Positions 6,630 to 59,735 of a stretch of 64,000 nt of DNA are shown in pieces. Position numbers and translations under genes: made by a program. Each line of letters starts with the position of its first letter. Positions within the stretch are counted from its first letter, which is position 1. This DNA comes from a virus (taxonomy: Duplodnaviria; Caudoviricetes), in IMG/VR virus record IMGVR_UViG_3300008255_000098; one strand, 5' to 3'. A model generated the notes under the pieces. It was not told where the DNA came from, did not search any database, and was given only the letters and a program-made list of their open reading frames with translations.

Positions 6630-7009
6630 TGTTTATTCCAGGAGACATTGTTTCTGGGAAAACTGACACAAAGGACCTTACACCAGGACATGTGTCACGA
6701 AATCCATATGATGAAGATTTAGAAATTTTCTACTCAAAATACAAAGAGATATTGTTGGCCATAGAATATCCGGCCATAAGGTATTCAGAAAAATATAAAA
6801 ATATAATTGCAGATACCGAAGAGAGAAAAATCAAAAAAATTAAAAAGATTAATTGCAATATGGTTGGTTTGGTTGTAGAGGTCGCCGATGGCGATGGCAG
6901 TGATAACCATAAAAATGGGGTGGTTGCAGTTTTAGTCGGAGAAGAGATTTTGTGGTTTTTTTCTCATGACTTACAACTTTTAAAATTTTCTACCATAAAA
7001 ACAAAATGA
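6629..7009 (+). CDS. hypothetical protein
   Basis: 126 aa ORF translationally coupled to neighbours on both sides. Confidence 0.6.
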   Translation: MFIPGDIVSGKTDTKDLTPGHVSRNPYDEDLEIFYSKYKEILLAIEYPAIRYSEKYKNIIADTEERKIKKIKKINCNMVGLVVEVADGDGSDNHKNGVVAVLVGEEILWFFSHDLQLLKFSTIKTK

Positions 7010-7614
7010 AAAAAAATAAGAAAAAAGTGGAACGAGACCCGAATGATTTTTATGAAACACCTAACTGGTGTACAGAACGGCTCTTAGAAAAAGTATCTTC
7101 ACGTTTACAGGTTGGAAACTGGTTGGAGCCATGTGCTGGTGCAGGTGCTATAATTAGAACAATTAAAAATTCTGGGATTACTCCTAAATTTACAGCAGTT
7201 GAATTACAAGATAAATTCAAGCCATACTTAGAAAATATTATTGACCCAACAGAAGTTTTTATTACGGATTACATGACTTGGAATCCGAAGAAAAATATTA
7301 AATTTGACGTAGCTATTGGGAACCCTCCATATAAATTTGCCCAACAGGTTATAGAACATTCTATGCAACACGCAAAACAAGTTTGTATGTTGTTGCGTTT
7401 AAACTTTTTGGGTTCCGAAAAACGTTGTGAGTGGCTCAAAAAAACTAATCCTGATATTTTTATTCTTCCAAATCGGCCCTCTTTTAGAGGAAAAGGAACA
7501 GACGCAACTGAATATGCGTGGTTTTTTTGGGATGACAAATCAAACGGGAAAATTACAATTTTAGATTTGACTTCAAAACTTGTAAGGTCCGCAGAAAAAA
7601 ATCTACCAAAATAG
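7006..7614 (+). CDS. DNA amino-methyltransferase (N6-adenine/N4-cytosine)
   Basis: DFYETP, LEPCAGAG SAM-binding motif, NPPY catalytic motif. Confidence 0.85.
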   Translation: MKKNKKKVERDPNDFYETPNWCTERLLEKVSSRLQVGNWLEPCAGAGAIIRTIKNSGITPKFTAVELQDKFKPYLENIIDPTEVFITDYMTWNPKKNIKFDVAIGNPPYKFAQQVIEHSMQHAKQVCMLLRLNFLGSEKRCEWLKKTNPDIFILPNRPSFRGKGTDATEYAWFFWDDKSNGKITILDLTSKLVRSAEKNLPK

Positions 7615-10155: not shown

Positions 10156-13100
10156 ATGGCTAGTCAAATTTTTAACTTCCCAGGCTTTTTCGATAGAGAG
10201 ATAGACCTTACCGCAAGACAACAAACACCTACTGGAGTACCAGCTGGTGTTATTGGGACCTCGGAGCGTGGTCCAGCATTCGTACCATTCACTGTTGGTT
10301 CTTTTGCAGATTATAGAACAATTTTTGGGGATCTGAATGTTCGGCACAGTGCTCCTTATGCGGTTGATAAATTTTTAGAAAATCAGTCCGCACTTACCTT
10401 TGTAAGGGTTTTAGGAGCTGGGTCTAACGATACTTCCGCTGATATTGACGCTACTCGTTCTAAGGGAACAGTTAAAAATGCTGGTTTCGCTATTAGCGGA
10501 ACACTTGGAGAAGTGCCTAGCAGCCCAGCTGTTAGCCAGGGCTCTGTACAGTTTTTAGTTGCTACCCATTTTGTTTCTGGAAACGAAGCATTCGGTATGC
10601 CGATGTTCACAAATAACAACTCTACGCTCGTGACTGGTTCCGCTGACCTTGTAAACTTGGTTCGAGGTGTTATTTTTACCGCAAGCGGAACAAGAATTCA
10701 AGTTCTTGACCATGACGAAAATTATACTGAAATTGCTGATGCTATAGCAACACCCAATAGCACCACACGTTATTTCAAGATGGTAATTTCATCCTCTGCT
10801 GGTGCTAGCTTTGGAACCGATGAAGGATTTTCCGGAGTTAGAATTTACACTGCGTCTCTTAACCCAACAGATGACAACTATTTCGCAAAACTCTTGAATA
10901 CAGATCCTGAAAAGTTCGGTGATGAAAAACATCTATTGTACTCTGACTTTGCAGTTGACGCCGAGATAGCTACTTTAGAAACTGGTGCAGGAACGGTTGC
11001 AATAGCAAGCGGAAGTTCAAATACTTCTACAACAAGCGGAGACACTTCCCTTCCGTTCTTAAATGCGTTTGGAAAGTTCAACACTCGTTATACCACCCCT
11101 CGTTCTCCTTGGTTTATTTCTCAGCCATATGGACAAACTGAACATGATTTGTTTTATATTGAGGCCACCGACGATGGAGCATACGCAAACTCTCGGATAA
11201 AAGTTTCAATCACAAACATTCAAAAATCTGCAAATCCAAAAGATAAGTTTGGGACATTCAATGTTGTGGTTCGTGCTTTTGATGATACCGATGTCAATCC
11301 AAAAATTTTAGAACAGTTCAGCAGCCTAAGCTTGAATCCTGCCACAGATAAATATATTGGAAAAGTAATCGGAGATAAGAAAGCTCGATATAACTTTGAT
11401 GCTGAAAATGCTGAGGATAGACGTTTGCTTACCACAGGAATGTACGCCAACAAAAGTCGTAATATCAGAGTTATAATTTCAGATGCTGTAGCACAGGGCT
11501 CTATTCCTGCTGATGCTGTCCCATTTGGTTTCCGTGGAATTGAACTTCTAAACACCAATACACTATTAGCAGATACTACAGGTTCTTCAGGACTTGGAAC
11601 TAGCGGAAGACTTGGAATTCATGGGTCTGGGCTTAACGGAAGGCTTGAAGGAGCAATAGTTCCGCCAATCCCATTGCGCTTCAAAGTTACTCGTGGAGAA
11701 GTAGATAATACAGCGGGTGGTTTGATTGGAGAAGCTGGAATCTCTGAAGTAGCGGACGCACGTTACTTCTGGGGTGTTAAATTCACAAGAAACAACAACA
11801 ACCTAAATCCAAATATCGTAGGACTTGAGAACAAGCTTATCCGTTCGTTCACAAATTTTTCTGGTATAGAAAAACTTGATGTTTTGGTTACCGGATCTAA
11901 TAAAGATGTCTTCAACAACAACAAGTTTACTCTAGCGAGAGTTGCACTTGGCAACAGTGCTTTAGCTGATGTAACTTCATCCGTGAATAGCCACATGAAA
12001 GAAGCTGCCTATATTCGTAATGGTAGTCCTGACAGTTTTGAGTACAAAATTACTGACGGTGCGGTAGATCGTATTACTTTAGCTACTCTTTACCAGAAAA
12101 GTACCTCGGCATCAGAATTCAACAAGTTTTCTGGTTTTGCCAAGTTCACCACTTTCTTGTATGGAGGATTTGATGGTACAAACACATTAGACAAAAACTC
12201 GGCCATGCAGAATGATAGGTCAACCTCGTCTGAGACTCGTTCAACAGATGGTGAAGAAGGAAATGCTTCAAGCACATTTGTTTCTCCAGGGTTTGATGTA
12301 AACCAAAACGGCGCAGGAATCCAAAATGCTTCTGTAAACTCGTATAGGGTTGCAACAAACATCATTACTGACACAATAGCTTCTAATGTTAACATCGTTG
12401 CAGTGCCTGGGCAACGAGACCCTTTGGTAACAGATTATGTTTCAGATGCTGTTAGAGACTTTGGAATCGCATTTTATGTAATGGATATTGCTTCTTATGA
12501 CTCAAGTGCAGACCGTATTTGGGATAACGAGCCAACCAAATATATTGACGTAGAACAAACTGCAAATATTTTTGAACAACGTGCAATCGACAACGAATAT
12601 GCGGGTGCGTATTTCCCAGATGTTGTTATGGAAGATACTATCAACAGAAGAAAAGTAACTGTTCCTTCAACAATTACAGCCCTTGCTGCTCTTGGATTCA
12701 ATGATAGAGTAGCATATCCATGGTTTGCTCCTGCTGGATTCAATCGTGCGGCTCTTAATTTTGTTGATCGAGCAAAAGTACGAATTCGCCAAACAGAACG
12801 TGAGAGATTATTCTCTGTTCATATCAACCCAATAGTTAAATTCCCAGGGAACAGTGCAAATGTTATTTTTGCTCAAAATACCTTAGAACAAGCTGAAACC
12901 GCATTAGGTTCAATCAACGTAGTTAGAATGTTGAATGAGCTAAAACGCCAAGTTGCAGATATTGGAAATAGAAAAATTTGGGAGCAAATTACACCTAGCC
13001 TATATACTGATCTTGAAAAATCTTTCAGAGGAGTTCTTAACACAATTACTTCTCAGGCAGGAATCGAAAGATATGAAGTTGTTGTTGATGGAAGAAATAA

Positions 13101-13221
13101 TACAAACATTGACAGAGAAAATAACACTGTTAACGTTCGTATTGTTCTAATACCGACAAGGGCAGTTGAGTTTGTTGCTATTGATTTTGTTATCACAAGG
13201 AGCGGCGTAGAATTTAGATAA
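10156..13221 (+). CDS. gp18: tail sheath protein 1 (gp18-like)
   Basis: N-terminal FPGFFDREID...GVIGTSERGPAFVP; C-terminal WFAPAGFNRA, INPI, SINVVRML and PTRAVEFVAIDF sheath motifs. Confidence 0.9.
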   Translation: MASQIFNFPGFFDREIDLTARQQTPTGVPAGVIGTSERGPAFVPFTVGSFADYRTIFGDLNVRHSAPYAVDKFLENQSALTFVRVLGAGSNDTSADIDATRSKGTVKNAGFAISGTLGEVPSSPAVSQGSVQFLVATHFVSGNEAFGMPMFTNNNSTLVTGSADLVNLVRGVIFTASGTRIQVLDHDENYTEIADAIATPNSTTRYFKMVISSSAGASFGTDEGFSGVRIYTASLNPTDDNYFAKLLNTDPEKFGDEKHLLYSDFAVDAEIATLETGAGTVAIASGSSNTSTTSGDTSLPFLNAFGKFNTRYTTPRSPWFISQPYGQTEHDLFYIEATDDGAYANSRIKVSITNIQKSANPKDKFGTFNVVVRAFDDTDVNPKILEQFSSLSLNPATDKYIGKVIGDKKARYNFDAENAEDRRLLTTGMYANKSRNIRVIISDAVAQGSIPADAVPFGFRGIELLNTNTLLADTTGSSGLGTSGRLGIHGSGLNGRLEGAIVPPIPLRFKVTRGEVDNTAGGLIGEAGISEVADARYFWGVKFTRNNNNLNPNIVGLENKLIRSFTNFSGIEKLDVLVTGSNKDVFNNNKFTLARVALGNSALADVTSSVNSHMKEAAYIRNGSPDSFEYKITDGAVDRITLATLYQKSTSASEFNKFSGFAKFTTFLYGGFDGTNTLDKNSAMQNDRSTSSETRSTDGEEGNASSTFVSPGFDVNQNGAGIQNASVNSYRVATNIITDTIASNVNIVAVPGQRDPLVTDYVSDAVRDFGIAFYVMDIASYDSSADRIWDNEPTKYIDVEQTANIFEQRAIDNEYAGAYFPDVVMEDTINRRKVTVPSTITALAALGFNDRVAYPWFAPAGFNRAALNFVDRAKVRIRQTERERLFSVHINPIVKFPGNSANVIFAQNTLEQAETALGSINVVRMLNELKRQVADIGNRKIWEQITPSLYTDLEKSFRGVLNTITSQAGIERYEVVVDGRNNTNIDRENNTVNVRIVLIPTRAVEFVAIDFVITRSGVEFR

Positions 13222-13350: not shown

Positions 13351-16300
13351 ATGACAATTAATTTCAGCAGCGCAGGAGTTTCAGCCAGAGTTATTAACTT
13401 AACTGGCCCAACAGCAACTCAACCATTAGGAATACCAGCAGGCGTTATCGGAACTTCACAAAAAGGTCCGGCATATGTGCCAGTGACGGTAGCCACAACG
13501 CAAGATTTCACAGTTGTATTTGGGCAACCAGCAAATGATAAATCAAACGGACCTCTTTCGGTAGCAGAATGGCTTAAAACACAACAAGCTGCGACTTTTG
13601 TCAGAGTTTTAGGCTCGGGCCAGGGAAAGAAAAGAGAAACTTCTGGTGACAACCAGGGGAGAGCCATCGGTGCAGGTTTTGTTGTCGGAGATGAACAGCC
13701 TACCGCTGCTGGGGCTCTTGGTAATAATATTTATGCAAACTCCGGTGGAAGCCCTACTGGACGTTTATATTTCTTAAATGCTTTTATGTCTGAATCAAAT
13801 GGCTCTGGTGTCTTTACAGATGCTGGGCTTTTAGGCGAGGCGCAGCCGATTATTCGAGGCGTTATTATGGCAGCTTCGGGTGTTATTTTACGTCTTTCTT
13901 CTTCAATCACTGGGACAACTAACAGCACGCCGTCTCCTTCTCTGATAGCAACTGAAGAAACTGCAAGTGGCTCAAGCCTTGGTTCAATAAATCTATCTGG
14001 CGGTAGACAAGAATTTATAATGTTATTGAATGGGCATAAAGGAACTGATGAAAACTATCCAAGAGTTATTACAGCTTCTTTGGATATAGATGCGCCAAAC
14101 TATATTGGACGGTCTCTTAACACAGACCCGCTTTTGATGGAAAAAGCGGGATATATGTTGTATGCAGATTATTCTGTACATCCAAACTTAGCTGTAGTCA
14201 CTGGTTCAAATGTTTTATCAACAGTAACCATGGATAGCTTTTCGGCAGGCGTGCTGGTGGGATTAGAACCAGCCATTTTCCTATCTTCTGGCTCTCTTAC
14301 GAGAAATTCTGGTTCGGTTATTGCTCCAAGTTATGAAAATTGGGAAGATAGATTCGGGACCCCAAAATCTCCTTGGATTGTATCACAAAAGTTTGGTGGA
14401 AAGCCACAAAACTTATTTAGAATTCATGCTCTGGATGACGGAAAATGGGATAACGACAAAATAAAATGGTCAATAGAAAATCTGACACCATCTATTAGCG
14501 ACGCTAATCCATATGGAACTTTTGACCTTCTGGTTAGAAAATACAATGACACAGACAAAAACAGAGAAACGGTGGAGGCTTGGAGAAAGCTTTCTCTTAA
14601 CCCAAGCTCTGATAACTACATAGCACGAGTCATAGGAGATACACACGTTTTCTATAACTTTGATGCTGCCGAGGGTTCACAAAAAATTACCGAGACAGGA
14701 GAATATCCTAATCGTTCAAGCGTAATTCGAGTCGAAGTTGCTGGCGCAGTCGATAGTGAAGAAGTTGACAAAACAGCGTTGCCAATGGGCTTCAGAGGTA
14801 TTGCTCATCTTGTTACTTCAGGATCCGCTCCGCTTGCTTCGATGTTGGATCCTATTACAAGTGTAGTTTTTGGAACTGCTGTTGGAGATCCAGCACAGAA
14901 TGTTGTTCAAATGCCAGTTCCTTTCCGAAGTAATATCAACGTTGGGGCGGCTTCTTCGCAAAGAGCAGATAAGGGACTTTATTGGGGAGTTCAGTTCGAA
15001 AGAAAACTAAGCGTTTCAGAACAAAACTCAACTAGTGAAGCTGAAAAAAGCATATCTTCATATACCACTTACTTCCCAAATTTCCAAACAACCTATATGA
15101 ACGTAGTAGTTGATAACAACGAAGGTACTTTAGATAGCACGGCAAATGGTATACTAGATGCTGATAGATTTAACAATAACTTGTTTAGTCTTGAAAATAT
15201 CGAGATTACACAAACTGCTACTGGCACAGCAGATGCTTCAACTCTAACGAGTTGGAACTATGTTCGAAACGGAAATATCGTTGACAATGGGTCAGTTAGA
15301 GCTTTGACAGCTACAGATTTAGCAGACTCTTCAGTTAGACAGGTTGCTAAATTCAATGGTATAGTTCAAGGTGGATTTGACGGAGTACGTATCTTTGATA
15401 ACGATACAGCTGAGTTAACAAACACGGCTATTATCGAAGAGATGGACAATGCAAATCGAGGAACATCTAATGGACCGACTGTCAAAGCCTATAAAAAGGC
15501 GCTAGACGTTATTGTGGACGACACTGAAACAGATATTCAGCTATTGACTATTCCAGGTGTCAGACATCCAATTATTACGGATGATGCAATAATCAAAGTT
15601 GAGGAACGTTTCGATGCTATGTATATCATGGACCCAATAGTATATGATACTACAAATACATTAGTTACGGCTTCTTCCCAGGACATCAGTGTTACTTACA
15701 CAGCAAATAACCACAGGGATAGAGGAATTAATTCTTCTTTCGCAGCTGCGTATTTCCCAGATGTAATCATTAGAGATGCACAAAATAATGTAACAAGACA
15801 AGTTCCTCCGTCAGTTGCCGTTCTTGGAGCATTTGGCTTAAACGACTCAGTAGGACACCCATGGTTTGCTCCTGCTGGCTTTGCCCGAGGAGCTTTGTCT
15901 AGCGCAGAACAAACTGTCCTGTCACTGACTCGTGCAAACATGAATAGCCTACAAGACGTAAAGATTAACCCGTTGGTTACTTTCGCTGGATCTAATGGAG
16001 TAACTGTTTGGGGGCAACGAACACTTCTTGGAAGTGACAGTGCCCTTGAAAGAGTAAGTGTTAGAAGATTGTTGATTAGCTTGCGTAGACAGGTTAAACA
16101 AGTTTCTAGAAGATTTGTTTTTGAGCAAGGCAGAGCAGAAACACTTGCAAGATTCTCACAACTTGTAAATCCAATTCTCAAAAAGGTTCAAGACCAAAAT
16201 GGTCTTGAGAAATTCCTTGTAAGAATTGACACTTCTACCACCACACAAGCGGACGTTGAAAACAGAACGATAAGAGGACAAATATTCTTAGTTCCTACAA

Positions 16301-16368
16301 AGACCTTGGAATTCTTGTCAATAGATTTTGCTGTGACAAACCAAGCAACATTTGTTTCTAGTATCTAG
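13351..16368 (+). CDS. gp18: tail sheath protein 2 (gp18-like paralog)
   Basis: SAGVSARVINL...GVIGTSQKGPAYVP; WFAPAGFARG, VWGQRTL, VRRLLI and PTKTLEFLSIDF motifs. Confidence 0.9.
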   Translation: MTINFSSAGVSARVINLTGPTATQPLGIPAGVIGTSQKGPAYVPVTVATTQDFTVVFGQPANDKSNGPLSVAEWLKTQQAATFVRVLGSGQGKKRETSGDNQGRAIGAGFVVGDEQPTAAGALGNNIYANSGGSPTGRLYFLNAFMSESNGSGVFTDAGLLGEAQPIIRGVIMAASGVILRLSSSITGTTNSTPSPSLIATEETASGSSLGSINLSGGRQEFIMLLNGHKGTDENYPRVITASLDIDAPNYIGRSLNTDPLLMEKAGYMLYADYSVHPNLAVVTGSNVLSTVTMDSFSAGVLVGLEPAIFLSSGSLTRNSGSVIAPSYENWEDRFGTPKSPWIVSQKFGGKPQNLFRIHALDDGKWDNDKIKWSIENLTPSISDANPYGTFDLLVRKYNDTDKNRETVEAWRKLSLNPSSDNYIARVIGDTHVFYNFDAAEGSQKITETGEYPNRSSVIRVEVAGAVDSEEVDKTALPMGFRGIAHLVTSGSAPLASMLDPITSVVFGTAVGDPAQNVVQMPVPFRSNINVGAASSQRADKGLYWGVQFERKLSVSEQNSTSEAEKSISSYTTYFPNFQTTYMNVVVDNNEGTLDSTANGILDADRFNNNLFSLENIEITQTATGTADASTLTSWNYVRNGNIVDNGSVRALTATDLADSSVRQVAKFNGIVQGGFDGVRIFDNDTAELTNTAIIEEMDNANRGTSNGPTVKAYKKALDVIVDDTETDIQLLTIPGVRHPIITDDAIIKVEERFDAMYIMDPIVYDTTNTLVTASSQDISVTYTANNHRDRGINSSFAAAYFPDVIIRDAQNNVTRQVPPSVAVLGAFGLNDSVGHPWFAPAGFARGALSSAEQTVLSLTRANMNSLQDVKINPLVTFAGSNGVTVWGQRTLLGSDSALERVSVRRLLISLRRQVKQVSRRFVFEQGRAETLARFSQLVNPILKKVQDQNGLEKFLVRIDTSTTTQADVENRTIRGQIFLVPTKTLEFLSIDFAVTNQATFVSSI

Positions 16369-19073: not shown

Positions 19074-21374
19074 ATGACAGACTTGTATACAGAGGCACTA
19101 AAAGATGCACAAAAAATTCGAGAGATTGCAGAAACTGATGCAAAAAATCGTCTCGTAGAAGCACTTACGCCGTACATCAAAAAAGTAATCGCAAAAGAAG
19201 CAGCTGGCGACAGTGACTTTTATTTTGAACAAAACGATAATCCAGAAGATGATGAAGATGCTCTTGATTTAAATAATCCGACAGATGTTCCAGCAGCAGT
19301 TGCACCACAAGCACCAGTTCCGGAAGGTCAGCCTTCTTCTCAAGCAGGAACTGCACCACAAGCACCACAAACAACACCAGGGCTTACTGTAAACTCTACG
19401 CCAACAGATGTGATGGGTGATGAAGCAACTACCCTCCCTATTAAAACACCAGGGTCAGAAGAACTTGTAAATGGTTCAATGCCAGATTCTGACGGCAAAA
19501 TTACTGTTGACTTCGAAGATTTATTTGTCAATGGAACCTCTGACCAAGTTACTATAACCCCGCAGGGGCAAATGGCTCCAATGGAAGCCCCTGTAGCCCC
19601 TACAGGGGGCGAAGAAGTTTCTCCTGGGCTTGGGGTTGATAAAACCTTAAATACTGGTAACGAGCCTCCAGTGGCAAATGGTGAGCCACTTGAGCCACTT
19701 GAGCCAACAGAAGACGAAGAACAACTTGATCTTTCGACGAAAGAGTCAATCAACTATAAAGATTATAAAAGAGTTTTTTCAAATATCTCAGAGAGAATTG
19801 ATATGACTCTTTACAAAGATAAAGTTTCAAATATAGTATTTGAAACCCTTAAACAACGGTTATTTGATTTACTGGAGGCAGTAGATACAATGAGAGACCG
19901 TGGAACTATTTCAGGTAAGCAAGCACAATTAAACGAAAACAAATTAGAATTTTTGTTTATAAAGCTGAAAGAGGCGAGTTTGCATAATAGTTACTCTAGT
20001 AATGGAAATAAAGGCCCAGATATGACAACCCTTAAAGAATTCGCAGCACAACTTTTTGAAGAAGATGAAAATCTTGCAAAAGATTCGGTTAGTAGTGGTA
20101 AAACCGGCGTTCCGGTTGATGAAGAATATTCAGCCCACGCAGCAAAAGTTTCTGGTGTAGACCCGAAGCTCGGTGGAGCTAAAGATATCAAGGTTTCGCA
20201 AAGTAAACATCTTGGTAAGGGTGAAGCTCTTCCAGATAGTTCAGACCCTGACGAAAAACCTTGGGGTGAAGGTTCACCAACAGTAAATGAAAATAGCGCA
20301 GTTGGCCTTGATGACACAGACGAAAAGCCATCTGACGAATTTGAAGTTGACGATGCAGAGCTTGCTGAAGCAGTAAGATCTATTCGAAAAGAAAGCATCA
20401 AGAAAAAGCTTTCAGCACTCCGTGAAGCTGAGAAAAAAGAAGGACTCAACGTTGAGACTTCAGAAGACTATCCAGATCCAGGCCCTGAGGGTGGCGAAGA
20501 CCCATCTCACGATAAACTTAAGGAAATGTTAGAAATGAGAATGAACGAAATGATGGATGAACAAGACGATGATGACAACGACGAAGACGAAGATATGTCA
20601 AAAGTTCTCGACGATGACGAAATGTCTGTTGAAGATGATTTAGATTCTGACGAAGAACTCCCAGAGGACGAAGACGCTGATTTAGTTCTTTCAATAGACT
20701 TGCCACCAGAAGTTGAAAAAGAGTTAGCAACTCTAGGTCTTGATGACCTCGATGTGGATGTTGCTCTTAATGTTTCTACAGACCTCGACGACGACGAAGA
20801 AATAGAAATTTCTGACGAAGACGAAGACGAAGACGAAGACGATGCCGAAATGCCTGAAGAAGAAGTTCTTGAGGACGAGTATATGGGCGGGGTAGACGAA
20901 ATGAAAGAAATGAAAAAAATGAAAAACGAAGCGAAAAGACAAGCTAACAAAGCAAAGCTTCTAGAAAAAAAGCTTCAAAAAGCAGTACGACTTCTTCGTT
21001 TACAAAATAATAAGCTTACTAACCTTGAGGAACAATTAGTTGAAACTAATCTGTTTACTTCAAAGGCAGTATATTACAGCAAGTTCCTCCAAAGGGCACT
21101 TACTGAAAAGGCTCTAAGCAAGAAAGCGTTACAACAAATTGTAGAGCACCTTGACAAGGGTCGATCGGTTGCTGAAACAAAAGCAATCTATAAGAAAATT
21201 GAGAATAAGCTCAATGAACATGCAAATGCTTCCCGCAAATTGGGCGGTTCTTCCTCGAAGGTGACCAGACCAGGGAGCGCAAACTTGAATGAGAGTGCAA
21301 ATTCTCAAACAAGGAATGATCCGGAAACTCAATCCAGCAATCGCTGGCAGCTTCTTGCAGGCATTAAAAAATAA
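19074..21374 (+). CDS. prohead core scaffolding protein (gp22-like)
   Basis: very acidic, many LxE sites, C-terminal coiled coil ending RWQLLAGIKK, immediately upstream of the MCP. Confidence 0.75.
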   Translation: MTDLYTEALKDAQKIREIAETDAKNRLVEALTPYIKKVIAKEAAGDSDFYFEQNDNPEDDEDALDLNNPTDVPAAVAPQAPVPEGQPSSQAGTAPQAPQTTPGLTVNSTPTDVMGDEATTLPIKTPGSEELVNGSMPDSDGKITVDFEDLFVNGTSDQVTITPQGQMAPMEAPVAPTGGEEVSPGLGVDKTLNTGNEPPVANGEPLEPLEPTEDEEQLDLSTKESINYKDYKRVFSNISERIDMTLYKDKVSNIVFETLKQRLFDLLEAVDTMRDRGTISGKQAQLNENKLEFLFIKLKEASLHNSYSSNGNKGPDMTTLKEFAAQLFEEDENLAKDSVSSGKTGVPVDEEYSAHAAKVSGVDPKLGGAKDIKVSQSKHLGKGEALPDSSDPDEKPWGEGSPTVNENSAVGLDDTDEKPSDEFEVDDAELAEAVRSIRKESIKKKLSALREAEKKEGLNVETSEDYPDPGPEGGEDPSHDKLKEMLEMRMNEMMDEQDDDDNDEDEDMSKVLDDDEMSVEDDLDSDEELPEDEDADLVLSIDLPPEVEKELATLGLDDLDVDVALNVSTDLDDDEEIEISDEDEDEDEDDAEMPEEEVLEDEYMGGVDEMKEMKKMKNEAKRQANKAKLLEKKLQKAVRLLRLQNNKLTNLEEQLVETNLFTSKAVYYSKFLQRALTEKALSKKALQQIVEHLDKGRSVAETKAIYKKIENKLNEHANASRKLGGSSSKVTRPGSANLNESANSQTRNDPETQSSNRWQLLAGIKK

Positions 21375-24096: not shown

Positions 24097-24167
24097 AATT
24101 AAAATTTAATAATTACGTTGAAATACATACTTACTCTAGGTAAGTAAAGATTGTGAATAATAAAATT

Positions 24168-24566
24168 ATGGCATTTACAAAAAATAGATTTCAAAAGTTA
24201 GCTGGGATTCTTAAAGAAAGTAAAAAACCTATAAATGAAGAGTTAGATGCTCCTAGAGATTTCTCAGAACTTCAAGATTGGCTAGACAGACGGCCAGGCG
24301 TTTCTGCTAAGGTTGCAAAATTGATTGAAGAAGAAGAAGACGAATCCAAAGCAGCAGAATGGTTGCTTACTAACTTCGACTATGATCTATCAATGTGGTC
24401 CGGAAAGGAATTAGTAGAATTTTTAGAACAATATACAACTTCTAATGATGAACACGACGACGATGACTACGATGATAGAATGGATGGGGATTTTGACAGT
24501 GCCATGGCCTCCGCTGGATTTGGTACCGATGAAGACTATGGTTTTAGCGGCGGGGAAGATTGGTAA
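24168..24566 (+). CDS. acidic virion protein with class II (RFQKLAGI) leader
   Basis: MAFTKNRFQKLAGILKE; C-terminal DGDFDSAMASAGFGTDEDYG; TACTTA at 24128. Confidence 0.7.
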   Translation: MAFTKNRFQKLAGILKESKKPINEELDAPRDFSELQDWLDRRPGVSAKVAKLIEEEEDESKAAEWLLTNFDYDLSMWSGKELVEFLEQYTTSNDEHDDDDYDDRMDGDFDSAMASAGFGTDEDYGFSGGEDW

Positions 24567-29729: not shown

Positions 29730-30299
29730 ATGGCATTTTTAAAAGAACGATTGCAAAAATTAGCAGGGATTACCAATCCACAGATGTTGACAGAATCAGC
29801 ACGCCCATACGATGATGAGGCGAAAAAAATGATACATGATGTACCTGCTTATTTACGTGCTATTCATCTTTGGTTTCATGGCGCTCACCACACCACCCGA
29901 GGCGCTGACTTCGCTGGCGATCATGCCTATCTCTATACAAGAATTTACACTGAGGTCCAAGATGAAGTAGATGGAGCCATAGAAAAAGCGATAGGCGTCA
30001 CTGGTGAACAACGTATGGCATGTCCGAAATGTTTAACAGAACATGCAGTTGAGATTCTTGGAAAATATGCAAATCCCCCGGAGTTAGAACCACGGGATAT
30101 TGCAAAAGAAGGTCTTCATATGATTGAAGACTATATTTCAATGATAGAACACACCTTCAAGGTGTTGGAAAGCAAAGGAATGCTTACCCTCGGAATGGAT
30201 GACCAACTTGCGGCTTCGGCAAACACACATGAAACATACGTATATTTATTGAAGCAACGAGTCCGAAGTTATGACGATGTTTCACAAAACTTGTTATAA
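29730..30299 (+). CDS. Dps/ferritin-like protein with class II leader
   Basis: MAFLKERLQKLAGI...LTE; HLWFHGAHH...FAGDH..LY...Y...DGAIEK and HETYVYLLKQ ferroxidase-type pattern. Confidence 0.75.
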   Translation: MAFLKERLQKLAGITNPQMLTESARPYDDEAKKMIHDVPAYLRAIHLWFHGAHHTTRGADFAGDHAYLYTRIYTEVQDEVDGAIEKAIGVTGEQRMACPKCLTEHAVEILGKYANPPELEPRDIAKEGLHMIEDYISMIEHTFKVLESKGMLTLGMDDQLAASANTHETYVYLLKQRVRSYDDVSQNLL

Positions 30300-35723: not shown

Positions 35724-36308
35724 ATGAATTTTTCAAGCAATAGGTGGAAACAACTTGCTGGTGTCTTAAAGGAAGGTGGCAATAAGCGCATATCAGCTAT
35801 AGGGTCTGATGACAGTGTGGATGGTCCTTATACAGAAATTTCTCCTTTACAGCCTATGGAACAAGACACAAAGTGTCTGCAAGAAGGCGAAGGGGAATAC
35901 CCTGCTACTGCTAGTGAGTATGCTAAAAAATTAAATGCCGAGCATGATGGACTATCTAAATTAGTAAGCGACCAAGAACATTGGGAAAAAGTTGGCATAT
36001 ATTCCGGAGAAGACTTGGCTAGATATCTAGCTATTTCTTCTTACGTGGACACATACAAAGATTCTTATGGAATACGTCCAAGACACGTGAAGTTTAGTAA
36101 CTTATCAATTGGCCAAATTGTTGAACTAACAGACGATATTATGAAAGATGCGTTAGGGGAAGAAGAAGAAGTAGAAGAAGACGATTATGAAGATGAATAT
36201 CCTGTAGATTTCGACGATGCTGTTGGGGACAATGACCCGGCGCCTGGGGATGAATATTCTGCCCTAGAAAACGAAATGGATAGAAAACACCACGGTAGAT
36301 CTTTTTAA
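35724..36308 (+). CDS. virion protein with class II leader
   Basis: MNFSSNRWKQLAGVLKE; central DTYKDSYGIRPR motif; acidic tail. Confidence 0.7.
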   Translation: MNFSSNRWKQLAGVLKEGGNKRISAIGSDDSVDGPYTEISPLQPMEQDTKCLQEGEGEYPATASEYAKKLNAEHDGLSKLVSDQEHWEKVGIYSGEDLARYLAISSYVDTYKDSYGIRPRHVKFSNLSIGQIVELTDDIMKDALGEEEEVEEDDYEDEYPVDFDDAVGDNDPAPGDEYSALENEMDRKHHGRSF

Positions 36309-36712: not shown

Positions 36713-36758
36713 TTTTGATAAGCCCTGGGGGGATTTTTAACCTCAGGGCTTATCAAAA
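36713..36758 (-). terminator. 15-bp stem hairpin overlapping the actin-like gene stop
   Basis: TTTTGATAAGCCCTG...CAGGGCTTATCAAAA. Confidence 0.7.
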
Positions 36759-37757
36759 AACTTGTGCAGCAATCAGGCAACCTTTGGCGACACTGTGTAG
36801 TGCATCAGCGGCATGACGCACTTCGCTTACCTCAAGCGGAAATTCATTTTCCGCTAATTTATCTTCAAACATTTTAACAAAGCCTTTTGCCTTTGAGGTA
36901 CCACCGGCAATTACTACTGGTAAAGGACTCACAAATTTAGGAAGATTTTTTCTTCCTTCTAAATGCACACAAAGCTGTTTAACCGTATAGTCAATTAACC
37001 TAGCATAATAAGAAGAAACTGCTGCCAAAACTGGATTTTCATTTGCTTCGCCAACAGTAAATTCTCCACCTTCTTTTTCTGCCTGGACAACAGAGTCTGG
37101 TTCCCCAGAAGCAACAGCTGACATTCTGTCAATCCAGTCACCAGATTTTGTCGTTGAAAATTTCAAAACTGGTTCACCGTTTAGCATCACGCACACATTC
37201 ACCATTCCGGCACCAAAAGAAAGAGTCACCCCCGTATAATCATCTTTTTCTAACTCGGCGTAACACAGTGCTTCGGCTTCATTTATTGCTCTAGCATCGT
37301 AACCTTGTTCAGATAATATTTTTGTTACTACGTCTTCGTGATATCCTATATCAAATTCTTCATCTTCTTGGTCAATTGGTTGTGCGGGTACACAAAAAAC
37401 AAGTTTTTCACCTGCTTTTTTCGCTTTTCCTACAACCTCTTTTAGGATATATGACAAAACTTTTCTAGCATCTTTCTCTTTTGCAGATACTACACCACGA
37501 TACATGGGACGTTTTGCGCTGTCATTTCTTTCAACTGCCTTCTCTAGTGCGTCACTTCCAAGAACTATAAATGAACCATTTTCTTCATCCTTAACAAAGA
37601 TTTTCCCCTTCAAACCCTTTTCAATCATTTTAGTTGCAATAGGGGTTGTTGGTTTTATTACATAAAATGCATCTCGGAAATCTTTATAAACAACATTTCC
37701 ATCTTTATTTTCACCAGCTAGCACTATAAACGATGTTCCGCAATCAAGACCTTTCAT
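36753..37757 (-). CDS. actin-fold ATPase (MreB/ParM/FtsA-like)
   Basis: phosphate-1 GLDCGTS, connect-1 INEAEA, phosphate-2 LSFGAGMVN, adenosine VIAGGTS; AGGAGG SD before ATG 37757. Confidence 0.8.
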   Translation of the reverse strand: MKGLDCGTSFIVLAGENKDGNVVYKDFRDAFYVIKPTTPIATKMIEKGLKGKIFVKDEENGSFIVLGSDALEKAVERNDSAKRPMYRGVVSAKEKDARKVLSYILKEVVGKAKKAGEKLVFCVPAQPIDQEDEEFDIGYHEDVVTKILSEQGYDARAINEAEALCYAELEKDDYTGVTLSFGAGMVNVCVMLNGEPVLKFSTTKSGDWIDRMSAVASGEPDSVVQAEKEGGEFTVGEANENPVLAAVSSYYARLIDYTVKQLCVHLEGRKNLPKFVSPLPVVIAGGTSKAKGFVKMFEDKLAENEFPLEVSEVRHAADALHSVAKGCLIAAQVF

Positions 37758-37768
37758 ATATCCTCCTA

Positions 37769-38060
37769 GTGAACTGCTCACCTACGACAGCAAAAAAAGC
37801 CGATGGGCTGGGCTTCGGGGATCACAGGCTCATCTAAAATAAATGGTAAAAACGCCTCACCCCGTTTTGCTTTAAAAAAAACATAGGATTCAGTCCCAGA
37901 ATCCGACAATATATCTATACCTTGTTTTAAGAATATTTTTTGTTTCATTTTACTTTTAGGTAATCTAAACTTTTAATGTTTCCATTCATTTTGAGAAATT
38001 TGCTTCGTTATGTCTAAAAAAATTACACACAAGGTTAGCGTTTGTCGCTTTTTACGCTCC
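37769..38060 (-). mobile_element. non-autonomous tnpB element inserted just upstream of the actin-like RBS
   Basis: reverse complement begins GGAGCGTAAAAAGCGACAAACGC and ends GCTGTCGTAGGTGAGCAGTTCAC; homologous to 7658-8013. Confidence 0.8.
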
Positions 38061-38977: not shown

Positions 38978-39808
38978 ATGGTCGATAGAGATAAACAACA
39001 AACAGACGAATTTAAAAAAGCAAACTCAAAAATTGTAACAGTTGGTGGAGAAAAAAAACTTCTATTAATGGACGATGATGAACCTAAAAATTCTGATGAG
39101 GAAATTGATTTACAGGAAATAATTGAAACTTTGGTCAGAGAAGCTTTGGAAGAAAACGAATTGTACAAGGATTATAATAAAAAAAAACTTTGTGAAGGAT
39201 ATATTGACGAAGCTGAATTCCCAAATGGTTTCAATATAGAAGAATTCAATAAAATTTCAAGTTTTAAAAATCGTGTCTCATATGCTAAAAAACATCTCCA
39301 GCGAGTTGCTGGTGGTTCTGGCAGAGTAGTCTTTGTAGTAGACCCAGAAACAGTTGTTAAAATTGCATTAAATAAAAAGGGCCAAGCTCAAAATAGTGCA
39401 GAATGGGACATTAGCAATATGGGGTATTCTGCTGTAACAAAGGTAAAAAATGCGGACACAGACAAATATTTGTATCTAGAAGTTGAACGAGCAAAAAAAC
39501 TCAACATGCGTGATTGGAAAAAAGTAACTGGTTGGAATTTTTATGACTGGATGGCTGTATTGAGAAATTACGTTGATGAACGTTTTAATAAAAAACGGGC
39601 TAGGAACATTGTTCCTGAAGACTTTGAAGAAATTGAAGAATCAGAACTTTTTTTAACCATTGTTCAAATGATTACAGATTTTAACATGCCAGCTGGTGAT
39701 ATACAGCGACCTTCCTCTTGGGGTATTGTTGAAAGAGACGGCGCAGAAACTCCTGTTTTAGTTGATTACGGATTGACTGGCGAAGTATATAAAAGCTACT
39801 ACAAATAG
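38978..39808 (+). CDS. protein kinase-like fold protein (paralog of 8029)
   Basis: VAGGSGRVVF, VVKIA, SAE, AGDI and LVDYG motifs; leader-like LQEIIETLVREALEE. Confidence 0.7.
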   Translation: MVDRDKQQTDEFKKANSKIVTVGGEKKLLLMDDDEPKNSDEEIDLQEIIETLVREALEENELYKDYNKKKLCEGYIDEAEFPNGFNIEEFNKISSFKNRVSYAKKHLQRVAGGSGRVVFVVDPETVVKIALNKKGQAQNSAEWDISNMGYSAVTKVKNADTDKYLYLEVERAKKLNMRDWKKVTGWNFYDWMAVLRNYVDERFNKKRARNIVPEDFEEIEESELFLTIVQMITDFNMPAGDIQRPSSWGIVERDGAETPVLVDYGLTGEVYKSYYK

Positions 39809-39809
39809 T

Positions 39810-41834
39810 TTAAGCAACTTCTTTTTTGTATGCGTGCAAAATATTTGGTATAAACTTTTTATATCTAAATTTTTTACTTAGCAACATGGACATAAGTTTT
39901 TCATAAGAGTTGATATCTTCCCAAGTTGTCCCTCTCCCAAAAAATATTTTTGCCATTTCATTTGGGTCTGTTGTAATCGGCTCATCTGATAGTTTTATTT
40001 TCTGCACATTTTTTTGTCGTCCAGTAGGTAGAACGGTTTTAATTTTTTGTTTTCGCATCCCATCTCTAAAATTCAAAACAAAACGAATATATTCATCTTC
40101 GTTTTCTGTTGGCAACTTAATTTCTCTAGCAATGTTACTCAACAACTTGTTTCTGTCCCTTGCTTTATAAGAACTATCTTTAGGAGCCCCTGAGTTAACA
40201 TCCGTCATCCACTGAAGATTTCCTACAAATATATCTACTTGAATAAATCCTGGTTCATCTCCACGAGACCCGTCAGATAAAAAGTTATTTATTTGTTTGT
40301 TTGAACTATCTACCAGCGGCGCTAAAATATGAAATTGACTTAACCCTTTGTTAATTGAATATTTCTCAGCGTCGCTTGTTTGTAACAGCCTATCAAGGCT
40401 ACTCCAAATATTTTTTTTGTCTTTTGAGGAAACTCCTAAAAATTTTGCTAAGTCTTTGCCGTCAATTGCAACGTCTATGTCGTTAAAAAATTCTTTTGTT
40501 TTATTACCAACAACATTGAATGGAATCCCGCCTAATCCACTATTTTTTAGTGCATTTGCTATAGCTGGCTCTAAAAGTGCTTTTGGAACTACAGAATTCA
40601 TTTCATCAAATACATTGCCTCCCTCTGTAAGGAAGTGCAAAGTTTTACTAAGTTTTTGTTCTGGTAGTAGTTCTCTTTTCATAAACATCTCAGCAACTTC
40701 CTTCGGGGGAATGCCTTGGGACAGTTTATTTTTAATTGCTTTTACAAATCCAAGATTTAATTTAATATCATTTTTTGTATCTTCAACCTTACGAGGGATT
40801 GTGATCCACTGTTGGCCTGTTTTTTTGAAATCTTCTTCGGCTCTATGTATTTCTTCTTCCCAAGCAGAAAGATATTTTTCTATATTTTCTGGGTCATTTT
40901 TAATATCTTTTTTGAATGTTCTAATTGCGCTTTCAAGCATTTTTAGAAACCTTCGATTTTCATCACCCTTTTTGAGAAATTTTTCTGTGTCAACAATTTT
41001 TAGCAATTCGCCCTCTGGGTTTTTGACAACTATACCCTCTACCTCATCACCAAATTTACTAGATACGTTTTTCTGTAATATTTGTTGTTTGGCTTCAAGT
41101 CCTAAATCTTGGATTGCTTTAAGAAGTTTTTGTTTCAATTCTTTTTCTGCTGGTTTACGAGCTGGTTTAGATAAGAAATTTCCGTGCTTTTCAATAATAT
41201 CTTCAAGCGAAACTATTATTGAAGAACTAAAATCTAGATCATGTAAATCAACATTTGGGACAGAGAAAAATTTTACTTTACTATATTTGTTAGCTTTGTT
41301 TGCAAAAGATTCCCAAATTTTTGGATTTGATAAAACGCCTGTGTTATCTTTGGAAACAGAAGTTTTCATATTAAATATTACAAGAATTCCGTTTCCAATT
41401 TTAGCCTCATCGTATATCACAATATTGTGATCATACGTTGGAACTGCCTCGCCAGCGACTTCAAGAGTATCAGTAAATTCAAAACCAAATTCTTCAGACA
41501 ACTCCTTACCTATTTCAGCCCACGGAATTTCAGATAATAACTCAAAATATTTCTTAAAACTAGTCATGAAATACAAATCTGGGATTTCCTCAGCTGAGTA
41601 CCAAATTTGTGTCTTTGAACGAAGATAAAATCTTCCGTTATCAATACCAGCCGCTCGATAACTACCGTCGATCTTTTCTGATACATGAAATTTAGCTTTA
41701 TCTAAATTCCATGCTTTTAAAAAGTTCAAAAGTTTCTGTGGAGACAATTTTTCAAGATGGACTACGCCTTCATTTAAATTTTTAAATGCTCGTGCTACTT
41801 CTTCGGTTATTAGCTTTTGTAAAAAAAATTTCAT
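39810..41834 (-). CDS. RNA-ligase-like domain fused to a Pol-beta-type nucleotidyltransferase, with leader
   Basis: ligase motifs EKIDGS, GE, EGIVVK and LKIV, no OB domain; after an internal LTE site (aa 402-404) GGNVF...NDIDVA...IQVDIF. Confidence 0.75.
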   Translation of the reverse strand: MKFFLQKLITEEVARAFKNLNEGVVHLEKLSPQKLLNFLKAWNLDKAKFHVSEKIDGSYRAAGIDNGRFYLRSKTQIWYSAEEIPDLYFMTSFKKYFELLSEIPWAEIGKELSEEFGFEFTDTLEVAGEAVPTYDHNIVIYDEAKIGNGILVIFNMKTSVSKDNTGVLSNPKIWESFANKANKYSKVKFFSVPNVDLHDLDFSSSIIVSLEDIIEKHGNFLSKPARKPAEKELKQKLLKAIQDLGLEAKQQILQKNVSSKFGDEVEGIVVKNPEGELLKIVDTEKFLKKGDENRRFLKMLESAIRTFKKDIKNDPENIEKYLSAWEEEIHRAEEDFKKTGQQWITIPRKVEDTKNDIKLNLGFVKAIKNKLSQGIPPKEVAEMFMKRELLPEQKLSKTLHFLTEGGNVFDEMNSVVPKALLEPAIANALKNSGLGGIPFNVVGNKTKEFFNDIDVAIDGKDLAKFLGVSSKDKKNIWSSLDRLLQTSDAEKYSINKGLSQFHILAPLVDSSNKQINNFLSDGSRGDEPGFIQVDIFVGNLQWMTDVNSGAPKDSSYKARDRNKLLSNIAREIKLPTENEDEYIRFVLNFRDGMRKQKIKTVLPTGRQKNVQKIKLSDEPITTDPNEMAKIFFGRGTTWEDINSYEKLMSMLLSKKFRYKKFIPNILHAYKKEVA

Positions 41835-41835
41835 T

Positions 41836-42351
41836 TCACTTTTTCATTTTTTGAATACGGTCATACATATCATCTTCATCTGCAACCCAATCCTCTTCTT
41901 TATCAGCAGCATCGTCTATCATCTCTGCTAACTTTATCAATTGGGCATTTGACTTTTCCATTCTTTCCATGTATTTTGATAGAATGGCACCGTGTATAGC
42001 ATGTTCGTTTGATTTGTTGTGGACATCTTTATATAAATCACCAAATAAGATATATGCATTTTTCCTGTCGCTCACAGCATTTTCATATATCTGCTTCCAC
42101 AATAGTTTTTTCTTATCCTCAAGAGAAGAAATTGTATCTAATAAAGCACTAAAATCTAGAAGTTGTTTTTCGGTATCTTTATCTAATTTTTTAATGTCTG
42201 TTGGAATAAATGTCATTTCTGGACGTTGGGCTGGAAAAGTCTGCGGAATATACTCATATCGTTTTTTATCTTTAGTCTGTTCATCATCATCGGCATCATC
42301 CAAAGCTTCACTTAATTCTTCTTCAAAAGTTTTGTTTAAATTATCTTGCAT
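41836..42351 (-). CDS. conserved hypothetical helical protein
   Basis: open frame coupled to the ligase-NTase gene; start chosen at MQDNL. Confidence 0.6.
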   Translation of the reverse strand: MQDNLNKTFEEELSEALDDADDDEQTKDKKRYEYIPQTFPAQRPEMTFIPTDIKKLDKDTEKQLLDFSALLDTISSLEDKKKLLWKQIYENAVSDRKNAYILFGDLYKDVHNKSNEHAIHGAILSKYMERMEKSNAQLIKLAEMIDDAADKEEDWVADEDDMYDRIQKMKK

Positions 42352-58458: not shown

Positions 58459-59735
58459 TTATATTACTTCCTTAAACGTTTCTGTATATTGTTCGCTGAT
58501 AGCCGAAAAGCTGTAATTTTCTTGCAGCTTCTTCGCCAGTTCCTTTGCCCATTGTTGAGGCACGCCAGGACTGTGGTAAAATTTATTTAACTTTCTTTTG
58601 ACATCTTCTTCAATTGGATTTGCCCATTGCATTTCTGCAAGAAAAATTTTATTATCTACTCTTGTTTCATGAATTTTCACAAGATTATAATCTATTTTAA
58701 CAAACTTTCCTAAATTCAAAAATTCTGTATGAGCACTCCAATTTGTAGCTATTACTGGTAATCCGCAGGCAGCTGCTTCTAAAATCGGAAGCCCGAAACC
58801 TTCGCCTCTAGTTAAACTAACTAAAGCTTTGACCTTGGGGTGTCGGTACAAACTGGCAACTTCATTGTCGGTCATATCTCCATGTAGCAGATAAAACTTT
58901 GGGCCTAGACCTTTTTTTGTTTCAAGCAATACTTTAGAAAGTATATTCACCGTATTTGCTCTATCCATTTTTGAGTTTCGTCCAAAATTTGTCTTTATGA
59001 TAACTCCAACTTCTGGGCTGTCTTTAAACTCTTCTGATAACCACTTGATGGTATAAACTAAATTTTTCCTATCATTTTCTGGGTTATTGCCGCAGAATTG
59101 ACCAAATACTAAAAAATTAAAATCAGTAGTAATTTTTGATAGGTCTAAAACAGAATCTGTTGAAACAGTTGAATCTACAAGACTAACTAAGCAGTTATCT
59201 GTAAACGCTTCTGGTAAGACTACAATTTTAGTAGTACACTCGCCAGTATTTAAAAACACCCTTTTGACAAATTCTGACGGAACCACAACAAGGTCCATTT
59301 GGTTTACACAGCTACCCATTCCGGGGAACACCTATCTGTTTCAACCGCCGCTGTAATTCCTATATTATAGTCAGCTAGAAAGGGGTTCCATTCGTTTGGA
59401 AGTTGTAGTTGCATTGAAACATCATAACTATCTGATACAACTGCGTGTTGTATCAAGCGACCTACCAACCCATCGTAGGCGTCAGTATTAACTACCCAAG
59501 GTGTAACTCCCCAGCGTAATGGTTCTATAAAAAGTTCCAGATCATCTCTATTATCTATTTGTTCAAAAAGCCACCTAGCAACTTGTCTGGAATGAACTCC
59601 ATATCCTGACTGGGTAAGAACAGGGGCACGTAAAATTACTTTTTTCTTTTGCTTTTCTTTTTTAAGAAATAAATCTTCTGTATCGTTTTTTAAAAGATCG
59701 TCTATATTTCCAAGTTCTTGTATTTGTTTACTCAT
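58459..59735 (-). pseudogene. GT4 (GT-B) glycosyltransferase split by a 1-nt deletion near 59311
   Basis: upstream ORF ends ...ETDRCSPEWV and downstream frame continues CVNQMDLVVVPS...GEGFGLPILEAAACG. Confidence 0.75.

Follow-up and report, generated by a model that had tools for sequence, protein, structure and literature searches.

The 64,000-nucleotide stretch of DNA analyzed here (the window; IMG/VR virus record IMGVR_UViG_3300008255_000098, Caudoviricetes) comes from a distant relative of phage T4 and carries, on its minus strand at 39810..41834, a gene for a 674-residue, 77.0-kDa protein in which an RNA-ligase-like half is fused to a nucleotidyltransferase (NTase) that resembles a minimal family-X DNA polymerase (PolX). 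This open reading frame (ORF), delimited from the ORF list and its translation with the stop codon included, is real and conserved: the identical protein was found on 7 contigs from several samples, and its homologues include 17 close relatives (34–56% identity) and 181 representative sequences, 63 of them with E below 1e-30. The protein begins with an amphipathic leader, and both the leader and the linker between the two enzyme domains end in a motif of the type cut by the prohead protease of T4 (gp21). Virions of two cultured jumbo phages have been found to contain homologues of the polymerase-like half. The full model proposed here, to which we give an even chance, is that the protein is a precursor that would be tagged for the capsid, packaged and cut at both sites.

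The ligase half was modeled with AlphaFold from 54 homologues (predicted local distance difference test score, pLDDT, 92.9). In this model, residues 23–385 form an RNA-ligase fold that has K54 as the lysine of its KxDG motif and no OB domain: an adenylyltransferase core (residues 23–282; 40989..41768, minus strand; motif I at K54, III at E129, IV at E266-G267, and V at K279) is followed, in the place of the OB domain, by an all-helical C-terminal domain (residues 283–385; 40680..40988, minus strand) with helices, assigned by DSSP, at residues 283–293, 295–313, 315–343, 347–372, and 377–385. The closest structures in a VIA search were NgrRnl (Z 11.6; root-mean-square deviation 3.8 over 190 aligned residues), TbREL1 (Z 11.1), T4 Rnl2 (Z 10.2), Trl1 (Z 9.9), and T4 Rnl1 (Z 9.2), with DNA ligases at Z of about 7.5–9.2. 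Among the 54 sequences, K54, D56, and G57 of motif I (EKIDG, residues 53–57) and E266 and G267 of motif IV (EGIVVK, residues 266–271) are invariant, and E129 (GE at 128–129, within GEA) and K279 (LKIVD, residues 278–282) are nearly so. A first-pass annotation, made from the sequence alone, had named these motifs and read them as an adenylation domain lacking an OB domain, in agreement with the helices that fill residues 283–385 of the model. The protein scores 24.3 bits (E 3.9e-5) against the Pfam family RNA_ligase (PF09414), short of the gathering cut-off of 27, which a homologue (P0036) passes with 29.5 bits; sequence searches of the PDB with the single protein, with profiles of both halves, and with a second ligase family (see below) returned nothing significant. 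On the strength of the modeled fold, the ligase half is probably an ATP-dependent, RNA-ligase-like nick sealer.

The polymerase-like half (residues 405–674; 39813..40622, minus strand; model pLDDT 95.3) consists of a palm and a thumb. An unbiased VIA search, made independently of Foldseek against 48,161 chains, put family-X polymerases in all ten top places, the first eight with Z of 8.2–8.9 over 157–194 aligned residues and the ninth and tenth with Z of 6.7 and 6.5. The top eight include Thermus PolX, Pol beta, Pol lambda, TdT, Leishmania Pol beta, and the PolX of African swine fever virus (ASFV), the last with Z 8.2 over 157 residues of its 176-residue chain. The family-X alignments span both palm and thumb, and Foldseek gave concordant results. 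The best matches outside family X, among them CD-NTases (cGAS/DncV-like NTases), terminal uridylyltransferases (TUTases), and poly(A) polymerases, reached Z of 6.4 or less and covered the core only (about 90–100 residues), and a tRNA-processing NTase reached Z 4.1 only; identities as a CCA-adding enzyme or a CD-NTase were rejected on this fold ranking. The 8-kDa and helix-hairpin-helix fingers domains are absent, so that the 270-residue domain starts at the palm, as in ASFV PolX. The pattern hG[GS]-x(9–13)-DxD is present together with a third carboxylate, with N for S/G in V-G443-N444; NDID lies at residues 451–454 and QVD at 532–534, and G443, D452, D454, and D534 are invariant in 95 sequences. 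None of these 95 members matches any Pfam family at E 0.01 or better (including PF14792, PF14791, and PF10127), PHROGs gave no match, and in the atlas clusters the family is almost purely viral and without a name. Given the lack of Pfam and PDB sequence matches, the family-X fold ranking, and the virus-only clusters, the polymerase-like half is a new sequence family that has, in its model, a minimal PolX-like architecture, and it is not RlaP, a CCA enzyme, or a CD-NTase. The first-pass annotation had called it a Pol-beta-like NTase following a ligase; the order is supported by VIA and Foldseek matches for both halves and the superfamily assignment holds, but the relationship is specifically to family X rather than generic, and the suggested CCA re-addition or signaling chemistry is disfavored by the lower-scoring, core-only matches. 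Elsewhere the window encodes (2614–3510, plus strand) a canonical DNA polymerase of family X, in which Pfam recognizes HhH_8, fingers, palm, and thumb domains, so that the genome has both a classical PolX and a divergent PolX-like domain; hhalign assigns the two a probability of 1.2%, although the piece that it aligns is the catalytic motif.

The two halves are joined by a linker (residues 386–404; 40623..40679, minus strand) that ends in L402-T403-E404 and presents a candidate internal cleavage site at E404|G405; residues 393–404 read QKLSKTLHFLTE and are followed by GGNVF. The leader ends likewise in L20-N21-E22|G23. Fourteen full-length homologues (40–56% identity) all keep L20, E22, G23, E404, G405, and G406. 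Upstream of E404 the linker varies in sequence and length, with indels among homologues, yet L-x-E-G-G is invariant. The linker is predicted to be disordered (pLDDT below 50 at residues 394–400 in the model of the N-terminal half, and 55 for the first ten residues in that of the C-terminal half). Ahead of the polymerase-like domain, position −3 is L, I, V, or M in 71 of 71 sequences and position −1 is E in 68 of 71, while position −2 and the stretch from −4 to −12 carry almost no information (3–4 bits at P3 and P1, under 1 bit at P2). The motif [LIVMF]-x-E|[GS]G precedes this domain in 69 of 93 representatives (internally in 48, after a leader of 12–35 residues in 14, and after a shorter leader in 7); 14 more start at the domain itself, and 10 have another junction. 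Leaderless polymerase-like genes start with MSGN or MGGN and leaderless ligases with MSIKH or MGIKH, in each case precisely where the predicted P1′ residue lies, so neither fold requires h-x-E; after removal of methionine, such proteins would have N-termini equal to the predicted cleavage products. The junction in front of the ligase domain depends on lineage (23 of 49 sequences have E at −1, and F-G-K|S is found in another class). Judged by sequence, both cleavage-type sites exceed chance, and the junction motif fits the L/I-x-E specificity of gp21. That every upstream peptide ends in a cleavage motif would be explained if the polymerase-like enzyme needs a free Gly-Gly N-terminus.

The leader (residues 1–22; 41769..41834, minus strand) is a candidate capsid-targeting propeptide. 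It has the form of an N-terminal propeptide of about 10–25 residues that ends in L/I-x-E, a pattern kept in homologues, and includes a second I-x-E at residues 9–11 (I-T-E); in the model it is a detached helix of low confidence (pLDDT 70, then 52, and below 50 at residues 19–21). Leaders of the same 22-residue length with the same K-x-L-x-E ending occur on four small ORFs (16626, 17488, 17716, and 18002), which occupy the position of the T4 prohead-core genes gp67/gp68, before an acidic, 766-residue scaffold-like gene and the capsid gene. A profile built solely from leaders of homologues outside the window recovers the leader of the fusion protein (E 4.5e-7) and also finds the N-termini of ORFs 27204, 26801, and 17488. 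It further matches the leaders of two stand-alone polymerase-like proteins, P0041 (4e-4) and P0056 (4e-3); these two alone count, since matches at E 0.1–1 are at noise level (7 such in a reversed-sequence control). The pattern [LIV]20-x-E22 is found in 11 of 200 window ORFs vs. 2.8 expected (P about 1e-4). The leader end named in the first-pass annotation (LNE) is confirmed at residues 20–22, and both this end and the internal site, which it had called protease-type, fit the T4 prohead-protease motif; it had also described residues 393–404 as leader-like, of which the terminal L-x-E site stands, but a second targeting leader was rejected, since this part of the linker varies, is modeled with low confidence, and has a negative score in the leader profile. 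A second class of leader, (R/K)-x-Q-K-L-A-G-I/V followed by L-x-E, was seen on three plus-strand ORFs (24153–24566, 29730–30299, and 35724–36308), the last of which (R-W-K-Q-L-A-G-V-L-K-E|G-G-N-K) resembles the C-terminus of the scaffold-like protein (19074–21374); the virion proteins gp61–gp63 of the cultured phage Atu_ph07 have a similar short N-terminal tag, M-(R/K)-W-H-Q-L-(I/T)-E.

The capsid protein of the window belongs to the gp23 family (PF07068, E 6.6e-78) and has LLE, LLE, and LRE sites in a propeptide that aligns with that of T4 gp23, and the window also encodes two sheath paralogues, a gp19-like tube protein, and Baseplate_J. In T4, gp21 cleaves after L/I-x-E and ignores most L-x-E sites in folded proteins (PMC9026906); the corresponding sequences are L-T-E|A in gp23, L-I-E|G in gp67, and L-R-E|S in gp24. 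Capsid-targeting sequences (CTSs) of 10–20 residues (PMC5694885) serve as targeting propeptides on T4's internal proteins and on Alt and are removed by gp21 (PMC5694885, PMC3012670). A gp21-type protease (Peptidase_S77) is encoded in 3 of 4 related virus records, and also on contigs of the same size as those bearing the homologues P0007 and P0013. In T4 itself (L019/L020, AF158101), rnlB, the gene for RNA ligase 2, lies directly beside head gene 24, and alt, which encodes packaged cargo with a CTS, adjoins baseplate genes 48 and 54; the fusion gene is placed likewise beside a baseplate module.

Two cultured phages link the polymerase-like family to virions. No match was found by tblastn when the full-length protein was compared with 50,697 phage records, and cultured phages were reached by tblastn only via a distant family member (P0157). 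In Atu_ph07, AUZ94877.1 is a homologue of the polymerase-like half (hhalign 98.5%) and corresponds to gp65, as established from the gene order counted from primase gp70 and the exact molecular weights of six neighboring genes; gp65 (32.16 kDa) was listed among the virion proteins with 10 unique peptides and 36.8% coverage (PMC6102473, Supplementary Table S5). In PA5oct, EST35_0231 is likewise a homologue (hhalign 98.7%) and was annotated "structural protein, ESI-MS/MS" (PMC7318152). The polymerase-like family is thus virion-associated.

Many T4-core phages have the two modules fused or side by side. Each occurs alone as well as in fusions of 800–1818 residues, and dozens of proteins join the ligase to the polymerase-like domain. 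Separate genes also lie together: in locus L018 a 355-residue ligase gene overlaps the start of a 276-residue polymerase-like gene, adjacent pairs occur in L016 and in Atu_ph07 (gp66/gp65), and in PA5oct the ligase-like 0228 and the polymerase-like 0231 are two genes apart. A second ligase-like family, which starts with GGAxGH and has the motifs EKxDG, EGIVF, and K-F-T-G, is homologous to the first (hhalign 92.9%) and takes the same place before the same polymerase-like domain. The stand-alone homologue P0035 adjoins a gp23 gene. The first-pass annotation had envisaged two tagged cargo genes that were fused and whose products are released as separate enzymes; stand-alone and split versions with boundaries exactly at the predicted cut points show that the halves can be separate proteins, and fusion of tagged genes is one possible history, but the leaderless adjacent pairs suggest instead an enzyme pair that was later recruited as cargo. 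A HIGH-type NTase (PF01467) is a frequent third fused partner (L007 9971–12565, P0013, P0024, P0026, P0028, P0039, P0076, P0083, and P0088), and its motif G-G-F-K-P-F-H-R-G-H resembles archaeal-type nicotinamide mononucleotide adenylyltransferases. Just upstream of the split pair in L018, within one gene block that precedes the baseplate genes, lie stand-alone genes for a SprT-like metallopeptidase and an ART-PolyVal protein (187–2165), both of which are domains typical of polyvalent proteins.

What the analysis shows are the folds, the catalytic motifs, the pairing of the modules, the two conserved sites and where they lie, and the detection of polymerase-half homologues in virions; from these we infer that the protein is targeted, cut twice, and ejected, as well as what its two enzymes do and on which substrate. 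The precursor would comprise a 22-residue leader of capsid-targeting type, the ligase (residues 23–404, 44 kDa), and the PolX-like NTase (residues 405–674, 30 kDa). Expressed alongside late structural genes, it would be docked into the prohead core by its amphipathic leader, in the manner of the CTS of T4 internal proteins and Alt; a gp21-type prohead protease would then take off the leader at E22|G23, and the same protease would most likely cut the exposed linker at E404|G405. The N-terminal peptides predicted after cleavage are GVVHLEK (from G23) and GGNVFDEMNSVVPK (from G405; N-terminus GGNVF). The head would thus contain two separate enzymes, which would be ejected with the DNA and could act in the host by an "extend then seal" route, in which the PolX-like enzyme adds one or a few nucleotides at a 3′-OH end or gap and the ligase seals the nick. 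The most likely chemistry is 3′-end extension followed by nick sealing. Its target is probably RNA that has been damaged, for instance tRNA cut by a nuclease, with nicked or gapped duplex nucleic acid as an alternative; RNA is favored because the nearest structural relatives of the ligase are RNA ligases. The TUTase/REL1 pair of the editosome is one extend-then-seal analogue. Others may be found in RlaP with an RNA ligase (PMC7824862; bioRxiv 10.64898/2025.12.29.696909) and ASFV PolX with a ligase. A broader proposal, which we hold only tentatively, is that T4-core jumbo and environmental phages have a hitherto unrecognized class of virion-packaged PolX-like NTases, delivered here with a ligase as a CTS-tagged polyprotein that is cut by the prohead protease and injected as a repair kit against nuclease damage to tRNA or incoming DNA before phage gene expression.

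Several observations weigh against a packaged and doubly cut precursor. L/I-x-E is a short motif, found once per about 47 residues. Both virion-detected homologues are leaderless, so the leader is not the sole route into virions. The ligase-like gp66 adjacent to gp65 in Atu_ph07 (38.04 kDa) is not in the virion list (PMC6102473, Table S5), the ligase-like EST35_0228 of PA5oct carries no such structural annotation, and packaging of a ligase is without direct precedent. The Atu_ph07 virions were purified with polyethylene glycol, so cytoplasmic carry-over is possible in those data. Motif V of the ligase is an unusual K-I-V-D instead of K-x-K, the second lysine being absent, and none of the T4 late promoter sequences (TATAAATA) in the window (11 vs. 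6.5 expected) lies upstream of the fusion gene. Among the 120 best protease homologues listed, none came from a 201,145-bp contig. Neither Pfam scans (40 ORFs) nor tblastn with the proteases of two relatives and T4 gp21 revealed a prohead protease gene within the 64-kb window, which would suit an ordinary cytoplasmic bifunctional repair enzyme, neither packaged nor cut, whose N-terminal helix serves in oligomerization or docking and whose h-x-E-G-G is a structural cap or a linker packing on the polymerase-like domain. Such an enzyme, which we judge unlikely, would also be in keeping with the leaderless adjacent pairs, with the moderate confidence of residues 403–412 in the model (pLDDT about 80), and with a distant 864-residue fusion of ligase, polymerase-like domain, and HIGH-type NTase in L007, which has no amphipathic leader, lies among metabolic genes in a non-structural neighborhood, and nevertheless keeps I-F-Q-E|GG, so that the junction motif could have a role other than prohead cleavage. 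Against a purely cytoplasmic role, the leaderless genes begin just after the motif and show it to be dispensable for the fold, the fixed P3 and P1 with a free P2 match the specificity of gp21, the same type of leader is present on unrelated small proteins near scaffold-like and capsid genes, and polymerase-half homologues are virion proteins in two cultured phages. A protein that is packaged and loses only its leader, to be ejected as an uncut 74-kDa two-domain enzyme comparable to LigD, is a poorer candidate still: fusion is the commonest arrangement, joined activities would aid a two-step repair, ten fusions lack the internal motif (a point that also counts against the doubly cut precursor), and gp21 skips most L-x-E sites in folded proteins (PMC9026906), but the internal L-x-E|GG is invariant in 14 of 14 close homologues despite the variable linker, the linker is predicted to be disordered, split genes show that the halves work as separate chains, and in the cultured phages the polymerase-like half alone was found in virions.

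The same chemistry might be directed at DNA, that is, at nicks, gaps, or ends of the injected genome or at breaks inflicted by the host, as with ASFV PolX plus ligase or LigD. We consider a DNA rather than an RNA target somewhat improbable, though it is a serious alternative, since the polymerase-like half is nearer to gap-filling DNA polymerases (beta, lambda, and ASFV PolX) than to RNA-specific NTases, phage DNA is the first thing that a packaged enzyme meets, and the Atu_ph07 pair lies close to a primase/helicase gene. It is countered by the ligase half, which is nearer to RNA nick-sealing ligases (Z 11.6–10.2) than to DNA ligases (Z 7.5–9.2), by the precedent of RlaP, a ligase-associated Pol-beta NTase that acts on RNA 3′ ends (bioRxiv 10.64898/2025.12.29.696909), and by the canonical PolX gene that the genome already has at 2614–3510. 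That the NTase half instead makes a signaling or decoy nucleotide, or re-adds CCA to tRNA, is very improbable; the intact carboxylate triad of its Pol-beta superfamily core and the presence of CD-NTases and TUTases in the second tier of fold matches would allow it, but these second-tier matches cover the core alone whereas the family-X alignments include the thumb, the tRNA-processing NTase is more distant still, no Pfam NTP_transf_2 or CCA model matches, and polynucleotide ends are the substrate to be expected of an enzyme obligately paired with a ligase.

A co-directional gene lies upstream of the fusion gene (41836..42350, minus strand; about 171 residues with an acidic N-terminus). The fusion gene starts one base after the stop codon of this gene, which makes co-transcription of the two probable, and a weak but repeated homologue lies directly upstream of the fusion gene in L001, L002, and L006. 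The fusion gene is flanked by a Volactin-type actin gene and the baseplate module, and baseplate genes are its constant neighbors in the loci compared. The actin gene (36753–37781, minus strand) encodes a phage homologue of the archaeal Volactin family (PF25216, E 8e-63), with 77–85% identity in L002 and L006. The convergent neighbor (38978–39808, plus strand) is kept beside the fusion gene in L001, L002, and L006; residues of about 80–276 of its product resemble small protein-kinase folds (T7-kinase, RIO, and ABC1 clusters) at template-modeling scores of 0.43–0.47, which make this a lead only, and its N-terminal extension contains a leader-like L-Q-E-I-I-E-T-L-V-R-E-A-L-E-E. The tail-sheath paralogues lie in tandem (10156–13221 and 13351–16368, plus strand; about 1000 residues each, phrog_23). 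Other window genes encode a TnsA-like endonuclease (5575–6057), an Eco57I-type methylase fragment (7006–7614), and a GT4 glycosyltransferase (58459–59331), which also matches the "GT4-conflict" family.

Phage proteins that are packaged and injected are the first phage molecules that the host meets, and the known ones are mostly inhibitors, ADP-ribosyltransferases, and RNA polymerases. If the proposed model is true, a packaged ligase and polymerase pair would add pre-emptive nucleic-acid repair to this repertoire, and a large virus-only family now annotated as hypothetical or "structural" would acquire a function. The present analysis links the abundance of Rnl2-type ligases in T4-like phages, the NTases associated with RNA ligases, and the enzyme-sized virion proteins of jumbo phages. 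The conserved [LIV]-x-E|GG junction offers a simple rule, open to testing, by which cargo released by the protease might be predicted in T4-like phages that have not been cultured, and it is also a candidate for a portable tag with which foreign proteins could be loaded into capsids.

Tagging with a CTS, processing by gp21, injected proteins of the polyvalent kind, and Pol-beta NTases associated with a ligase are already known; new are the PolX-like family, the obligate association of this family with two families of ligase-like proteins, its previously overlooked occurrence in two virion proteomes already published, and the tagged, doubly sited polyprotein. The fusion protein shares with internal proteins I–III and Alt of T4 a short N-terminal propeptide ending in L/I-x-E, a gp23-type capsid, a position beside baseplate genes (as for alt), and enzyme cargo delivered with the DNA (PMC9026906, PMC5694885, PMC3012670). 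It differs in that its leader is amphipathic and 22 residues long vs. the 10-residue CTS of internal protein III, and in that the cargo is a precursor of two enzymes that has a further, internal site, targeting and cleavage here being predicted from sequence. RlaP (PF10127) is also a Pol-beta superfamily NTase, whose gene in phages and bacteria is coupled to that of an RNA ligase, and it puts 1–2 nucleoside monophosphates on damaged RNA 3′ ends before ligation (PMC7824862; bioRxiv 10.64898/2025.12.29.696909); the fusion family, in contrast, has no PF10127 match, its fold is nearest to family X with a thumb, and its coupling is a covalent fusion. T4 Rnl2, T. brucei REL1, and Naegleria NgrRnl (Rnl5), the best structural matches of the ligase half (Z 10.2–11.6 over 185–197 aligned residues), have in common with it the KxDG lysine, motifs III and IV, and the absence of an OB domain, and its helical C-terminal domain resembles that of Rnl2; identity is only 12–16%, however, the PF09414 score is sub-threshold, motif V is K-I-V-D, and the invariant His26 near the mature N-terminus is without a described counterpart. 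ASFV PolX is a minimal palm-plus-thumb X-family polymerase that works with a ligase in gap filling and sealing, and LigD combines polymerase and ligase activities in one chain, but both systems act on DNA, and the LigD polymerase is of primase type rather than Pol-beta type. Polyvalent proteins (Iyer et al. 2017, PMC5512222) are likewise multi-enzyme polypeptides, for which packaging, injection, and possibly cleavage into active pieces have been predicted; the fusion gene has relatives of up to 1818 residues with three or more modules, and the L018 pair lies beside ART-PolyVal and SprT-like genes. The fusion protein itself differs from them in having two modules only, with no MuF, portal, or metallopeptidase domain found, and in that its processing would be carried out by the prohead protease at a defined motif and not by autoproteolysis.

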